DNA of 37,596 nt, from the IMG/VR virus record IMGVR_UViG_2558860170_000006. The stretch is one strand, 5' to 3'. A model generated the notes under the pieces. The model was given only the letters and a program-made list of their open reading frames with translations. It did no database searches and was not told where the DNA came from. How positions within the stretch are numbered: the stretch's first letter is position 1; each line of letters starts with the position of its first letter. Both the position numbers and the translations under genes were made by a program. This DNA is from a virus (taxonomy: Duplodnaviria; Heunggongvirae; Uroviricota; Caudoviricetes). Shown piece by piece: positions 3,716-28,433 of this stretch.

Positions 3716-3860
3716 AACCGCAGCACGTTCTTGCTTAAGACGTGCTGCGGCATAATCCCAATGATTACTCCCTGACAGGGTTCGTAGGCCACTCAATATC
3801 AGGTGCAGTTGATGTATCAACACGGTTCAGCAACACCCGATACTTTTTCTAGGCTTCCAC
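3716..3860 (+). repeat. direct repeat copy B (~140 bp), begins with a near-perfect long hairpin
   Basis: CCGCAGCACGTTCTTGCTTAAGACGTGCTGCGG hairpin (3718-3750) then CATAATCCCAATGATTACTCCCTGACAGG…; matches copy A; its distal part overlaps the decayed pin reading frame. Confidence 0.6.
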
Positions 3861-4115
3861 CACCAGCACGACAAGATGCCGCATACAGTGACCCAGTCAG
3901 TCCAGTTTTCAGACAACCAGTGCGTCACCTTTTTGAAGGCGCTTTAAAGCACGTTTTAATCCAGGTCGGCCTGTCCTTGTTCCGCTTAATTTATCTTCAA
4001 ATATTTGTTCATATCCTGCACAAACAAGAGCGTTTCGTTGCAGGTCTGTATTCTGGTCATTTGTTGATACCCTTACATAGCCAATCAGCACGCTGAATCT
4101 CCCGTCCAAAAGCAC
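3780..4115 (-). pseudogene. pin: Pin/Gin/Hin-family serine DNA invertase, decayed
   Basis: N-terminal 68 codons intact (…LIGYVRVSTNDQNTDLQRNALVCAGYEQIFEDKLSGTRTGRPGLKRALKRLQKGDALVV) then TGA; the same frame continues with recognisable invertase residues (KLD*LG…) and further stops; no intact catalytic or HTH C-terminus. A GTG at 4091 aligns with the usual MLIGYVRV start. Confidence 0.7.
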
Positions 4116-23039: not shown

Positions 23040-23342
23040 ATGAGCAGAAAAACCCAACGTTACTCTAAAGAGTTCAAAGCCGAAGCTGTCAGAACGGTTC
23101 TTGAAAATCAACTTTCGATCAGTGAAGGCGCTTCCCGATTATCTCTTCCTGAAGGCACTTTAGGACAATGGGTTACCGCCGCCAGAAAAGGGCTCGGTAC
23201 TCCTGGTTCCCGCACGGTGGCTGAACTGGAATCTGAAATTCTGCAACTGCGTAAGGCGTTAAATGAAGCTCGCCTTGAGCGAGATATATTAAAAAAAGCA
23301 ACAGCGTATTTTGCACAGGAGTCGCTGAAAAATACGCGTTAA
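23040..23342 (+). CDS. IS600 OrfA
   Basis: 100-aa ORF MSRKTQRYSKEFKAEAVRTVLENQLSISEGASRLSLPEGTLGQWV…; A-run (AAAAAAAG) near its 3' end fits an IS3-type -1 frameshift into orfB. Confidence 0.9.
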   Translation: MSRKTQRYSKEFKAEAVRTVLENQLSISEGASRLSLPEGTLGQWVTAARKGLGTPGSRTVAELESEILQLRKALNEARLERDILKKATAYFAQESLKNTR

Positions 23343-23377
23343 TCGAACAATGGCGACAACAATTTCCCATTGAAGCG

Positions 23378-24196
23378 ATGTGTCAGGTATTTGGTGTATC
23401 CAGGAGCGGTTATTACAACTGGGTACAGCATGAACCCTCAGACAGAAAACAAAGTGATGAGCGGCTAAAACTGGAGATTAAGGTGGCACATATCCGCACT
23501 CGCGAAACATATGGAACCCGGCGGCTCCAGACGGAGCTGGCAGAGAATGGCATCATCGTTGGTCGTGACCGACTGGCACGTCTTCGTAAGGAGCTAAGGC
23601 TACGCTGTAAGCAGAAACGCAAGTTCAGAGCGACTACGAACTCGAACCACAATCTGCCAGTTGCGCCAAATCTGCTGAACCAGACGTTCGCTCCTACAGC
23701 ACCAAATCAGGTCTGGGTGGCGGACCTGACGTATGTTGCCACACAGGAGGGATGGTTGTACCTCGCTGGCATCAAAGATGTTTATACGTGCGAAATTGTC
23801 GGCTACGCCATGGGAGAGCGCATGACAAAAGAGCTGACAGGTAAAGCCCTGTTTATGGCGCTCAGGAGCCAGCGCCCACCTGCCGGGCTAATCCACCACT
23901 CTGATCGAGGTTCACAGTACTGCGCATACGATTACCGGGTCATACAGGAGCAGTCTGGTCTGAAAACATCAATGTCGCGTAAAGGTAACTGTTACGACAA
24001 CGCTCCGATGGAAAGCTTCTGGGGAACGCTGAAAAATGAGAGCCTGAGCCACTATCGTTTTAATAACCGGGATGAAGCCATCTCAGTAATACGGGAATAC
24101 ATTGAGATTTTCTACAATCGTCAGCGTCGTCACTCTCGTCTGGGGAATATCTCCCCGGCAGCCTTCAGGGAAAAATATCATCAGATGGCTGCTTAA
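23378..24196 (+). CDS. IS600 OrfB (DDE transposase catalytic part)
   Basis: 272-aa ORF with IS3-family DDE integrase-like sequence (…VWVADLTYV…HHSDRGSQY…YDNAPMESFWGTLK…). Confidence 0.9.
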   Translation: MCQVFGVSRSGYYNWVQHEPSDRKQSDERLKLEIKVAHIRTRETYGTRRLQTELAENGIIVGRDRLARLRKELRLRCKQKRKFRATTNSNHNLPVAPNLLNQTFAPTAPNQVWVADLTYVATQEGWLYLAGIKDVYTCEIVGYAMGERMTKELTGKALFMALRSQRPPAGLIHHSDRGSQYCAYDYRVIQEQSGLKTSMSRKGNCYDNAPMESFWGTLKNESLSHYRFNNRDEAISVIREYIEIFYNRQRRHSRLGNISPAAFREKYHQMAA

Positions 24197-25314: not shown

Positions 25315-27168
25315 TTATGATGATGCCGGTGCATTTATCTCCAGCACCAGACTTTCTATCTCAACGCCATACGCTGCATTTTTGGTAATATCCGTCAGCG
25401 TCAGCGCATTCAGCCCCAGTGTCAGACTGTCTTTTATGACCTGGAATGCCGGGCCAGCCACTCCATTCAGTTTCGGAGTAACCGTGGCACTGCCGGCGGT
25501 GAACACCAGCTCCAGCGTCAGCCAGTCGTTACTGTAATTCCCGAACTCGCCCAACTTTGTGTTTCCTGCTTTCTTGTGATGCATCAGATTCAGTTTGCCG
25601 TCTGTGGTCTGGGTGAAGAACGACATCAGGAACGGGTTACCAGTCCCGGTCATCGCCACGACGTCAGGTAACGCTACATCGGTATACAGATAAATTCCCA
25701 GACCGAACTGGTTGTTGGTCAGTGCGCCTGACAGTCGAAACTTACAGCTCAGTCTGCCACCCCGTGTCAGCAGGGAGACTGCGTCATCCACCGGGCGCGT
25801 CAGGGACCAGGCTTTATTGCTCTGCTTGGTGATCTTAAATACACCATCTGACAACTGAACTCCGCCATTCTTAATGCTCCAGCCCTGCGCAGCAGCGTCT
25901 CCGGCTGTCGGCAACAGGGAGATTGTGCGTATGGATGCATCTTCAGACGGCCCCGATGGCGTGTCGCCGCCGGGCGAGGGTTTGATTTCCGGTGCCTTAC
26001 CACTAATGAAGGCTAAGGTGCGACCGGCTACGTTCAGAATAGCAGTTGCCATACGATCGGGAATAATGCCACGACGCGCCCATGAGCTGAAATGCGTCGG
26101 GCGATTTGATGATACCCAGTTTTTGTTCGTTCGGGATGCCGAACCGTAATAACCAGACCCGGCAATATCAGGATCTTCTGACGGGTTGTTTGTCGGTGTA
26201 TTAACTCCGCTACCATCGGTCATAAAGGGAACAAAATAAATCTGCTGGGATTCTTTACCTTTATATGCACCATATACCACTTCATATTGCGTACCGTGTT
26301 CTTGTTTCCACGCGTATGTCGTGTCGCCACAAATCCAGGGGACTGATGCCGGACTTCCACCGTGACACTGCGCCGCCAGCCCGGCAAGGTCAGCACGGAA
26401 CTGCTGTACCATTGCAAGAAATGCTGCTGGCTGCTGGGCGTAACTGGCATTCGTCATATCGAATTCCCCCTGCATCCAGCATATCGCCAGCAAAACGTTT
26501 TTCGGGTTTTTCTGCAATGCTGCCTTCGTGCGGAAAAGCAGATCCTGATATAACGGCTTACCCACTCCCCAGCGAGCCGAATCCTGACTGGCCCCCGTGG
26601 ACTCGCTGAATGTCCCCTCCGTGCCCTGGGTGAATGCCGAACCACCACAACAGCATGGTACCAGCAGGATCCCCGCATTATTAGGGATATACGGAAGCAG
26701 TTTTTTGGCAATATGTAAGCCCTGTCCGACACAGCCGTACTGCCCTTTGCTCAGGTCAGCCCGGGGATGGTTAATCGTACTCATATCCTGAACATCATGC
26801 AGACAATGGTCAGCAGGAATGATGTCGTTAAATACGCATACTTCACCACCGGGAGTCACTGTGTTACGACGGGCCAGTTGCTTAATGCGCGGATGGGGCG
26901 CATCGTATGAATCCGGAAGCGGAAGACCTTCACCGTAAGCCATGGCATTGGATTGCCCGGCCAGTACGATGACGTAGTACCACTCCGGCTCAGTTGCACC
27001 ACTGACGACCACATCACCTTCTGCTGCAATCGCCTGCATCAGGGTATAAGGGGTTATGGCCACCGGACTACCAAACGGCTGCCAGCCCTCCTTCAGTTTT
27101 TGTGTCAGTCGTTTCGCAAGGTCTGACGGCGATGCCGCCCTGACCACGTCATAGTGTTTAAATGCCAT
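25315..27168 (-). CDS. nanS-p: NanS-p-type esterase (9-O-acetyl-neuraminate esterase-like, YjhS family)
   Basis: 617-aa ORF; occupies the position directly upstream of S, as I recall for this family in lambdoid/Stx prophages. Confidence 0.8.
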   Translation of the reverse strand: MAFKHYDVVRAASPSDLAKRLTQKLKEGWQPFGSPVAITPYTLMQAIAAEGDVVVSGATEPEWYYVIVLAGQSNAMAYGEGLPLPDSYDAPHPRIKQLARRNTVTPGGEVCVFNDIIPADHCLHDVQDMSTINHPRADLSKGQYGCVGQGLHIAKKLLPYIPNNAGILLVPCCCGGSAFTQGTEGTFSESTGASQDSARWGVGKPLYQDLLFRTKAALQKNPKNVLLAICWMQGEFDMTNASYAQQPAAFLAMVQQFRADLAGLAAQCHGGSPASVPWICGDTTYAWKQEHGTQYEVVYGAYKGKESQQIYFVPFMTDGSGVNTPTNNPSEDPDIAGSGYYGSASRTNKNWVSSNRPTHFSSWARRGIIPDRMATAILNVAGRTLAFISGKAPEIKPSPGGDTPSGPSEDASIRTISLLPTAGDAAAQGWSIKNGGVQLSDGVFKITKQSNKAWSLTRPVDDAVSLLTRGGRLSCKFRLSGALTNNQFGLGIYLYTDVALPDVVAMTGTGNPFLMSFFTQTTDGKLNLMHHKKAGNTKLGEFGNYSNDWLTLELVFTAGSATVTPKLNGVAGPAFQVIKDSLTLGLNALTLTDITKNAAYGVEIESLVLEINAPASS

Positions 27169-27361
27169 GAATCCTCCCGGCCGGGATAATATTGTGAGTA
27201 AAATAAGGAGCGGGCTGAAGTCCGGAAGTTACAGGACAATGGCAGAAGAGAGACGACAGCCCGCAATTCGAAAAAGACCGCGCAGTTGCGCAGAGTGATT
27301 ACTATGGGGTATTATTCGCCAGCTGAAATATTACTTCACGTTTTATTGTTTATTCCTTGCC

Positions 27362-27390
27362 GCCCGCGTCTCCCAGCGCGGGCTTTTTTT
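27362..27390 (+). terminator. rho-independent terminator (plus strand)
   Basis: GCCCGCG-TCTCCCA-GCGCGGGC hairpin followed by TTTTTTT. Confidence 0.5.
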
Positions 27391-27395
27391 GCCCA

Positions 27396-27697
27396 CAAGA
27401 AAACCCCTCCGGAGAGGGGCTAAAGCCGCGTATCTGTATCATCATGCACATGGTGCCGGGTGCCTCCCGGTGAGTTCAGCCCGGTGCCACTAAACCCGCG
27501 TCATTCTCGTTTTGATAATCAGAGATTATACCGTCACCAGTCGCCCCTCCGCTCAGGGGGATTCACCATGCGAAATTTTTTTAACAAATGCCCAGTCTGA
27601 CAGGCAACTGTCAACTTACTGAATTGTGAGCAACATAGCATTTAACGGGGAACCTGTTTTCTGCAGTAAAAAGGCCCACCGGAGCGGATGGGCCTGG
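27396..27697 (-). repeat. non-coding module U1 (paralogue of U2); candidate small transcription unit
   Basis: Bounded by minus-strand terminators (GGCCCATCCGCTCCGGTGGGCC+T5 at 27668-27694; CCCCTCTCCGGAGGGG+TTTTCTT at 27396-27419); shares conserved blocks with U2; internal TATAAT on the minus strand. Confidence 0.5.
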
Positions 27698-27886
27698 AAG
27701 GATAGCGGTCATGTGATGCCGGTTTCCCGGTAACTCAGCACCGGTATCTGAGTCAACGTTTTCTCTACTGGGTCATTTCCGATACGCCCTGCCTGCTGAC
27801 AGGCTTTCATCACATCTGAAAATATAGCACCCTGACTGATACTGTAGTACCTAAGGTTCCAGAAACTGTGATGTATCCGGCACAGA

Positions 27887-28129
27887 AAAGCCCCTCCGGA
27901 GAGGGCTGGAGAGTGGCGCTATGTGCCATTGCATGATGCCGGGTGCCTCCCGGTGAATTCAGTACCAGCACCTGAATCCGCGATTATCCCATATACCTAC
28001 TCGCTGATTGCCCCTCCGCACAGGGGGATTCACCATGCCAGTTTCTTTTAACAAACTCCCCGCAAAACAGACAACTGTCAACCGTCTGAATTGTGAGACA
28101 TTTAAAAAAAAGGCCCGCAAAAGCGAGCC
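27887..28129 (-). repeat. non-coding module U2 (paralogue of U1), directly downstream of the tRNA cluster
   Basis: Minus-strand terminators at 28104-28129 (hairpin + T8) and 27887-27907; conserved blocks GCCGGGTGCCTCCCGGTGA, CAGGGGGATTCACCATG, CAACTGTCAAC, CTGAATTGTGAG. Confidence 0.5.
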
Positions 28130-28143
28130 AGGGAAAATAAGTG

Positions 28144-28220
28144 TGGCGCGTTGTACTGGATTCGAACCAGTGACCGATTGCTTAGAAGGCAATTGCTCTG
28201 TCCGGCTGAGCTAACAACGC
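28144..28220 (-). tRNA. argO: tRNA-Arg (anticodon TCT)
   Basis: GCGTTGTTAGCTCAGCCGGACAGAGCAATTGCCTTCTAAGCAATCGGTCACTGGTTCGAATCCAGTACAACGCGCCA; 7-bp acceptor stem, encoded CCA. Confidence 0.85.
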
Positions 28221-28233
28221 ATGATGCAGATAA

Positions 28234-28310
28234 TGGACCGCCATCGGGGACTTGAACCCCGCGCAGCCAGCTTCGAAGGCTGGCGCTCTTTCCTGATGAG
28301 CTAATGGCGG
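28234..28310 (-). tRNA. argN: tRNA-Arg (anticodon TCG)
   Basis: CCGCCATTAGCTCATCAGG…CCAGCCTTCGAAGCTGG…GGGGTTCAAGTCCCCGATGGCGGTCCA; cloverleaf-compatible. Confidence 0.8.
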
Positions 28311-28317
28311 TATGTGA

Positions 28318-28393
28318 TGGTGGCCCTTGCTGGATTTGAACCAGCGACCTGGCGATTATGAGTCGCTCGCTCTCACCACTGAGCTAAAGGGCC
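28318..28393 (-). tRNA. ileZ: tRNA with CAT anticodon, Ile2 (lysidine) type
   Basis: GGCCCTTTAGCTCAGTGGTGAGAGCGAGCGACTCATAATCGCCAGGTCGCTGGTTCAAATCCAGCAAGGGCCACCA; resembles E. coli tRNA-Ile2 as I recall it. Confidence 0.8.
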
Positions 28394-28433
28394 GGGAGCC
28401 GCATAATAACGACGCGTAATTAATTCTTCAATA

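Follow-up and report, generated by a model that had tools for sequence, protein, structure and literature searches.

An array of STnc100-family small RNA units between the tRNA cluster and nanS-p in a lambdoid prophage of Escherichia coli

STnc100 is among the most abundant annotated families of small RNAs (sRNAs), and eleven copies were found to be transcribed in strain EDL933 by RNA sequencing (RNA-seq), with one confirmed by Northern blotting. In the Sakai strain, convergent pairs of Hfq-bound sRNAs are located downstream of the Q-dependent late promoter in eight prophages, and the pair in prophage Sp5, EcOnc27 and AsxR, lies 3' of stx2B (Tree et al. 2014). This layout, situated in lambdoid prophages between late promoter and lysis genes, has been named a "dyad of Hfq-binding sRNAs". 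Here, the interval between the transfer RNA (tRNA) cluster and the nanS-p-type esterase gene of another lambdoid prophage (IMG/VR record IMGVR_UViG_2558860170_000006; 37,596 nt, the whole of which is referred to as the window) was examined, and three tandem STnc100-like units facing a predicted sRNA gene on the opposite strand were identified.

Northern blots detected EcOnc27 as species of ~235 and 247 nt, of which the 247-nt form was destabilised (Tree et al. 2014). EcOnc27 is the same RNA as sRNA103, overexpression of which raises the levels of fimZ and espA transcripts (Gruber and Sperandio 2015). Single nucleotide polymorphisms (SNPs) in sRNA103/EcOnc27 have been reported among the top features predictive of haemolytic uraemic syndrome (HUS), and a further description, from 2025, again places it 75 nt downstream of stx2. 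Also related are PasD1 and PasD2 of enteropathogenic E. coli (EPEC) E2348/69, represented by EcOnc13 in enterohaemorrhagic E. coli (EHEC). PasD1/2 are abundant Hfq-associated sRNAs in RNA interaction by ligation followed by sequencing (RIL-seq) data and carry the seed in the 3' tail, and a 2026 preprint proposed that STnc100 and PasD1/PasD2 are of common ancestry.

STnc100 copies in the interval upstream of nanS-p

The window was scanned using Rfam 15, in which STnc100 (RF02076) has a gathering score of 47 bits. Two matches covering model positions 1-206 were found on the minus strand, module 1 at 27600-27391 (161 bits, E 1.9e-36) and module 2 at 28067-27878 (123.6 bits, E 7.3e-27). These E-values place the similarity far beyond chance, and on sequence grounds both modules are full-length copies of the catalogued prophage sRNA STnc100, their membership being secure. 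A preliminary description, made from the sequence alone, had recognised two paralogous modules, read them as duplicated minus-strand sRNA genes or structured regulatory elements and proposed a covariance search of both. The scores bear out that reading, and E. coli members of the family are expressed, Hfq-bound and visible on Northern blots. However, a permissive Rfam scan revealed a third STnc100 match (27839-27666, minus strand) between modules 1 and 2, making three tandem units rather than two. All three lie on the minus strand and were named, in the order of their transcription, U2 (27881..28095; RF02076 match), Umid (27666..27839; a divergent STnc100-like unit with a sub-threshold match) and U1 (27393..27628; RF02076 match and synteny).

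An exact search recovered the four blocks of sequence conserved between modules 1 and 2, each occurring twice in the whole window and always on the plus strand, namely GCCGGGTGCCTCCCGGTGA at 27455 and 27938, CAGGGGGATTCACCATG at 27554 and 28021, CAACTGTCAAC at 27605 and 28072, and CTGAATTGTGAG at 27619 and 28086. A repeat search also returned an 88-nt direct repeat with 82% identity and a 31-nt repeat with 94% identity, 467-483 nt apart. U1 and U2 share 82-94% identity in the scaffold blocks, and differ in the internal hairpin and the tail.

The Umid match of 30.1 bits does not reach the gathering score, and its E-value was 2e-4 in a search of 1.1 kb and 0.006 in the whole window. Umid was nevertheless found as a discrete unit in 673 E. 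coli genomes. In a lineage with 92% identity to Umid (e.g. in strain ST167), helix P2 is kept via a change from C-G to U-A, and the pseudoknot described below is kept via a change from G-U to A-U. With its helices retained, its presence in 673 genomes and these compensatory changes, Umid is not debris, and it may represent a subfamily of STnc100 missed by the current Rfam model.

The window shows the prophage opposite to its late-gene direction, and the order of genes on the minus strand is Q, methylase, tRNAs, array, nanS-p and holin. The antiterminator Q gene (30886-30065) and a DNA methyltransferase gene (29492-28434) precede a cluster of phage tRNA genes for Met/Ile-CAU, Arg-UCG and Arg-UCU (28393-28144; ARAGORN and Rfam tRNA matches), which is directly upstream of the array and on the same strand. 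Downstream, the dyad is adjoined by the nanS-p-type sialate O-acetylesterase gene (27168-25315; an open reading frame (ORF) of 617 aa), which shares 84.6% DNA identity with an E2348/69 gene annotated as a SASA family carbohydrate esterase, and a class II holin gene lies beyond nanS-p in the late direction. The array thus has the prophage location of STnc100 RNAs, in the late region and on the late-gene strand, and the order of genes in the region matches that in Stx2_95 and Sakai Sp5. The 971-bp interval is 99.4% identical in UTI89, S88, IHE3034, NU14, ATCC 11775 and other extraintestinal pathogenic E. coli (ExPEC). At least 80% of it is present in 353 of 5426 complete E. coli genomes and at least part of it in 2728 of the 5426, and RefSeq leaves the equivalent interval without an sRNA annotation.

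The ~971-975 bp between the tRNA cluster and the esterase gene had been described as lacking credible ORFs. This was upheld, as no entry for the interval in the ORF list is longer than 77 aa and Pfam gave no match to the three longest ORFs of the minus strand, and coding potential was rejected. RefSeq does annotate a 126-bp fragment of a 'hypothetical protein' pseudogene on the plus strand of the equivalent UTI89 interval, which could indicate that the modules are decayed remnants of protein-coding genes, of stx genes or of insertion sequences (ISs). However, no similarity of the interval to stx2AB or to IS sequence was detected by blastn, an outcome that the preliminary description had named as counting against the sRNA interpretation had it been otherwise, and remnants of either kind were rejected. 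Differences between U1 and U2 in a shared reading frame are mostly non-synonymous, and a covariance model fit at E 1e-36 with compensatory base-pair changes is not what decayed genes would give. A decayed-gene origin is thus very improbable.

Relationship to the sRNA downstream of stx2B and to other sRNAs

Comparison using blastn with a Stx2a phage and Sakai Sp5 revealed that homology extends from the methylase gene through the tRNAs to 28103 and resumes at 27629, where it spans U1, the plus-strand gene and the start of nanS-p (90.6% identity to Stx2_95). As the homology breaks at 28103 and 27629, stx2AB takes the place of window positions 28102-27630, which hold U2 and Umid. U1 itself is 90.6% identical to the stx2B-nanS interval of Stx2_95 and 85% identical to that of Sakai Sp5. 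In Sp5, stx2B is followed after 75 nt by the start of the STnc100 match (207.7 bits), which stops a single base short of the 3' end of AsxR, the convergent gene. These sequence relationships identify U1 as orthologous to EcOnc27/sRNA103, which lies downstream of stx2B. Both modules had been placed in the slot where Stx phages carry stxAB, and a comparison with such phages had been suggested. The placement holds for module 2 (U2), together with Umid, where stx2AB stands instead, whereas module 1 (U1) has its counterpart 3' of stx2B and is retained there.

The resemblance to EcOnc27/sRNA103 extends to full-length model matches, to the strand with respect to late transcription and to the neighbours, with tRNAs on the upstream side, nanS-p on the downstream side and a convergent sRNA that adjoins the 3' end. 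U1 is 85-91% identical to the Stx2-phage copies. The present prophage differs in that it has no stx operon and carries three tandem units, whereas Stx2 phages carry stx2AB and one unit. The tails of U1 and U2 are also unlike the Sp5 tail, and because of this the targets of U1 and U2, if any, probably differ from those of the Sp5 copy.

PasD1/PasD2 likewise lie upstream of esterase or lysis genes and share with the units P1 and P2 (GCAUGGUGAAUCC...) and an AU-rich stretch before P1. However, they score 38-41 bits against STnc100, which is sub-threshold, lack the canonical P4 hairpin and have a U-rich tail with the seed UGUGAG, a sequence not found in the RNA strand of U1, U2 or Umid. An alignment of U1 and U2 with PasD shares the 5' core only and, with 124-161 bits as opposed to the 38-41 of PasD, U1 and U2 belong to STnc100 proper and not to PasD. 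The 5' block of the units (27619-27630 and 28086-28097; minus-strand RNA CUCACAAUUCAG) contains CUCACA(A), which is the reported target motif of the PasD seed (UUGUGAG), with perfect complementarity over 7 bp. This could be due to chance, or could reflect an sRNA-sRNA interaction where strains carry both.

As adjacent paralogues on the same strand, with conserved blocks, differing segments and their own terminators, the units also resemble OmrA/OmrB and PrrF1/PrrF2. These pairs are without a large conserved pseudoknotted domain, whereas in the array it is a structural part that is conserved, and variation falls in the internal hairpin and the tail.

Structure of the units and a pseudoknot in the STnc100 core

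Each unit consists, in order, of a 5' block, a leader hairpin, an AU-rich linker, the core, a variable tail of 23-26 nt and a terminator. The 5' block is (CU)CACAAUUCAG, and the leader hairpin is UGACAG-UUGC-CUGUCA, of which the conserved block CAACTGTCAAC is the loop region and not a separate motif. The core is closed by P1 (GCAUGGUG/CACCAUGY) and includes P2, a variable hairpin, P5 and P4. P1 (NNNNGGUG/CACCNNNN), P2 (CCCCC...GGGG), P5 and P4 (CCGGG-AGGCA-CCCGG) are present in both U1 and U2, for which helix coordinates were taken from cmscan alignments and coordinate mapping.

On the minus strand of the window, U1 has its 5' block at 27628-27619, leader hairpin at 27613-27598, P1 at 27571-27564/27455-27448, P2 at 27560-27544, P5 at 27497-27490/27479-27472, P4 at 27470-27456, tail at 27447-27422 and terminator at 27421-27402. 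In U2, the 5' block is at 28095-28086, P1 at 28038-28031/27938-27931, P2 at 28027-28011, P5 at 27979-27972/27962-27955, P4 at 27953-27939, tail at 27930-27908 and terminator at 27907-27889. Umid keeps P1 (27815-27808/27718-27711), a P2-like hairpin (about 27803-27788) and P5 (27755-27748/27738-27731), and its P4 (27730-27719) is CCGG-GAAA-CCGG, in which the AGGCA loop is replaced by a GAAA tetraloop; a terminator follows at 27695-27672. All three units therefore end in a 3' intrinsic terminator, as is characteristic of STnc100. The minimum free energy (MFE) fold of U1 recovers P1, P2, P5, P4, the leader hairpin and the terminator.

Additional STnc100 copies were collected using the exact 19-mer CACCGGGAGGCACCCGGCA, which lies in P4, and the invariance of P4 in this collection is thus partly by construction. 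The 19-mer was found at at least 120 loci in a collection of one genome per species, nearly all Enterobacterales, with genera including Salmonella, Shigella, Enterobacter, Kosakonia, Klebsiella, Pantoea, Erwinia, Rahnella and Trabulsiella, and also in at least 120 viral contigs. Among 181 unique cores, positions 3-6 of P1 are paired in 95-99%, with G-C, A-U, C-G and U-A alternatives, and for P5, 94 different 3' strands were counted and on average 7.3 of the 8 positions are paired. These paired alternatives provide covariation support for P1 and P5.

The 12 nt after P2 were found to be complementary to the P5 loop, forming a pseudoknot. The paired strands are CUGGUG (27540-27535) and CACCGG (27486-27481) in U1, AUCAGCG and UGCUGGU (28008-28002 and 27970-27964) in U2, and UAUCGG (27784-27779) and CCGGUG (27744-27739) in Umid. 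The pair in Sp5 is CUGGUG/UACCAG, and other genera have AGGCUAC/GUAGCCU and UUAACC/GGUUAA. As the linker after P2 varies by 1-2 nt, leaving no fixed register for counting columns, the pseudoknot was assessed by comparing matched with mismatched partners. A helix of at least 6 bp occurs in 80% of 178 cores, compared with 19% when partners were taken from unrelated copies and 16% for an adjacent control segment (Mann-Whitney p ~1e-58 and 1e-34), and 104 distinct duplexes are represented. By comparison of these 178 unique copies, which come from many Enterobacterales, a pseudoknot in the STnc100 core is thus supported by covariation. This pseudoknot is absent from the cmscan structure line, in which the P5 loop is unpaired, and from the 2026 PasD preprint.

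Conservation of P1, P2, P5, P4 and the pseudoknot in 178 unique copies with varying tails raises the alternative that the core has a function of its own as an RNA domain, that is, a compact pseudoknotted fold of ~115 nt that binds a specific protein or ligand, acts as a tRNA-related decoy or is catalytic, with the tail an add-on and Hfq-mediated base pairing secondary. Junction and loop nucleotides (GGUGAAUCC, GCGG and UCACCGGGAGGCACCCGGCACC) are near-invariant, and the fold is kept in both prophages and islands of many Enterobacterales genera. Tandem arrays of up to six copies occur in several loci, and a tRNA gene lies within 1.5 kb of 17 of 103 copies, in each case on the strand of the copy, with some copies abutting tRNA genes. 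The depth of conservation favours this alternative somewhat. However, the exact 19-mer used for selection exaggerates how invariant P4 looks, most copies are not beside tRNAs, and the 17 of 103 led an obligatory linkage to tRNA genes to be rejected. There is also no conserved alternative pairing between core and terminator, and hence no riboswitch-like expression platform. The known data point to association with Hfq, and an independent function of the core is considered unlikely. If it were true, the window would hold three such domains in a row, including the divergent Umid subclass missed by Rfam.

A riboswitch or attenuator was considered separately, since the 3' strand of P2 can pair with the 5' strand of the terminator in U1 and U2, a pairing that forms in the MFE fold of U2. 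It was rejected, as neither Sp5 nor other genera keep this pairing.

Arrays of three to six copies, ~250-580 bp apart, were observed at seven loci (L098, L051, L079, L096, L144, L157 and L194) from Pantoea, Superficieibacter and metagenomic phage contigs. At L096 and L116, a tRNA gene lies within ~30 nt after the core, in place of the terminator. Rfam called STnc100 in 13 of 18 scanned genome loci, and the five without a call (L007, L009, L021, L041 and L102) carry a variant core motif (GGUGAAUGCGGCUCAGCGC...CACCGGGAGGCACCCGGCACC) in which P2 is replaced by GCGGCUCAGCGCNCGCG. Loci with the variant core also include L022, L029, L069 and L112. The variant core is found directly upstream of small ORFs (one DUF1317, others without a Pfam family) and not before a terminator.

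Two candidate 5' ends were identified for the units. Homology between the copies begins ~10 nt upstream of CACAAUUCAG, at TTAAAT, which recurs in unrelated upstream contexts, and a start near this point would yield an RNA of ~235 nt, as for EcOnc27. The second candidate is an internal TTGYCU-N18-TGtTAAAAA with a start at the G of GCAUGG, homologous to the mapped 5' end of PasD. Elements resembling -10 boxes, TATAAT (27530-27525) in U1 and GATAAT (27988-27983) in U2, had been proposed on the minus strand. However, both sit within the variable hairpin, which is downstream of P1 and P2, and Northern blots show the orthologue at 235-247 nt, so they were rejected and are unlikely to be promoters. 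The conserved TTGACA (27613-27608 and 28080-28075) was also rejected as a -35 box, as there is no -10 element at 16-18 nt and the hexamer is a strand of the leader hairpin.

The convergent gene, the terminators and the proposed role of the cluster

The sequence at 27190-27400 is ~95% identical to a 182-nt EPEC sRNA candidate from RIL-seq (E2348C_1409.E2348C_1408.IGR), a homologue of EHEC EcOnc08/21/42, and this homology together with promoter and terminator scans identified a candidate sRNA gene on the plus strand (27209..27390) that converges on U1. By homology, the RNA would start near 27209 and be ~180 nt long, and a candidate promoter (27162-27190, plus strand) overlaps the nanS-p start codon on the opposite strand. 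The gene is antisense to the nanS-p 5' untranslated region. A seed-like CCUUGCC is kept at 27355-27361 and matches the target motif of the EPEC candidate (GGCAAGG/GGCAGGG). The terminator hairpin (27362-27383, plus strand), with a U-tract to 27390, is conserved relative to the EPEC candidate; it is the plus-strand terminator that had been noted back to back with that of U1, and it ends the convergent gene. By identity, seed and terminator, the gene belongs to the EcOnc08/21/42 type.

The gene occupies the position of AsxR in Sakai Sp5, and an upstream GAAAAAGRCCGCGCAGTTGCGCAG segment is common to the AsxR locus. However, its body and terminator are unlike those of AsxR/AgvB, which are 51-60 nt long with a conserved 3' region of ~42 nt, as opposed to ~180 nt here. 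No match to RF02703 or RF02702 (AsxR/AgvB) was found in 27100-28200 at E up to 10, against a score of 88 bits for Sakai AsxR, and identification as an AsxR/AgvB anti-sRNA was rejected, with the upstream segment alone shared. In prophage PP6 of E2348/69 (L246, 2150-2300), an ISEc13 insertion has removed the 5' end of the STnc100 copy opposite the EPEC candidate, and this dyad has only one intact partner.

A terminator scan of 27100-28500 returned 12 terminator-like sites where 1.3 were expected, including those at 27421-27402, 27695-27672, 27907-27889 and 28129-28112 on the minus strand and at 27362-27383 on the plus strand. Modules 1 and 2 had been described as bounded by terminators on both sides; the 3' terminators are their own, but of those upstream, 27695-27672 ends Umid, and 28129-28112 follows the tRNA-Arg(UCU) gene, with its U-tract reaching the TTAAAT (28105-28100) just upstream of U2. 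Directly between the tRNA cluster and nanS-p, the minus strand has four terminator-like hairpins within 750 bp. These, together with the conserved position between late promoter and lysis genes in many prophages and the excess of sites, could mean that the units are mainly a cis-acting stack of terminators. In the lysogen, such a stack would insulate nanS-p and the lysis genes from read-through that originates at the tRNA genes or at moron promoters, and would be overridden by Q-antiterminated late transcription, the released RNAs being by-products. However, termination needs no pseudoknotted domain of ~115 nt kept across many genera, the domain also occurs in copies without a nearby terminator, and the orthologous RNAs are stable, abundant and Hfq-bound. 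As a principal role, insulation is unlikely, though it is compatible with an sRNA function and not exclusive of it.

Elsewhere in the window, matches to isrK (72 bits) and C4 antisense RNA (76 bits) were found at 721-919 on the plus strand, with a sub-threshold c4-a1b1 target site, corresponding to the isrK/C4 immunity-type module of phages resembling P1/P7 and Gifsy. In the early region, a match to the sok antitoxin RNA (112 bits; 33300-33475, minus strand) implies that a type I toxin-antitoxin locus, hok/sok, is present. IS009 RNA gave a match of 110.8 bits at 2759-2962 on the minus strand, the gathering score being 117, and a second partial match at 3808-3887 (minus strand). Inverted pairs of ORFs of 100 and 272 aa are found at 23040-24196 (plus strand) and 34358-35514 (minus strand) and, judged by ORF sizes alone, look like two copies of an IS3-family insertion sequence.

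For the interval as a whole, we favour a cluster of sRNA genes in a 'moron' position, made up of three STnc100-family genes that follow a working model of scaffold and variable seed, as the probable explanation. Observed in the window are family membership, the conserved fold, the terminators, synteny with the RNA 3' of stx2B and homology of the plus-strand gene. Under the model, U2, Umid and U1 would be tandem minus-strand genes, each ended by its own intrinsic terminator, with the plus-strand gene converging on U1. By analogy with experiments on orthologues, discrete RNAs of ~180-250 nt would accumulate in lysogens and Hfq would bind the 3' tail and terminator; the cross-linking and analysis of cDNA (CRAC) peak of Hfq on EcOnc27 (Tree et al. 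2014 supplement), converted to the current record, covers P4, the tail and the terminator. The pseudoknotted 5' domain (P1, P2, P5, P4 and the pseudoknot) would serve as a stable scaffold, and the variable internal hairpin and single-stranded 3' tail would supply base-pairing specificity, so that the three paralogues and the convergent partner may act on different host or phage RNAs. The terminators would stop transcripts entering from the tRNA genes or other upstream promoters, with read-through to nanS-p and the lysis genes by Q-modified RNA polymerase only.

However, several points weigh against this sRNA model. The evidence of expression comes from orthologues, and PasD levels were not Hfq-dependent in RNA-seq. 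The U-tracts of the U1 and U2 terminators are interrupted (UUUUCUUGU and CUUUUCUGU) and thus suboptimal for binding of Hfq, and z-scores from folding of single sequences are modest, at -1.6 to -1.7. The -35 elements that precede the start of the units are both weak and inconsistent, and a PasD-like internal start would give an RNA of ~178 nt, not 235-247 nt. So strongly conserved a core, with a pseudoknot and invariant loops, is also unusual for a purely base-pairing sRNA.

The STnc100 family, its position relative to stx and the convergent partner are all already published. The pseudoknot and the divergent middle unit are added here, and could improve the family model and guide mutagenesis, leaving the overall picture unchanged. 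An interval left blank by RefSeq can now be annotated, and the findings also have a bearing on work on EcOnc27/STnc100, the RNA with the reported HUS-predictive SNPs. A lambdoid prophage of extraintestinal E. coli without Shiga toxin genes thus carries the sRNA dyad that flanks stx2, expanded to three units.

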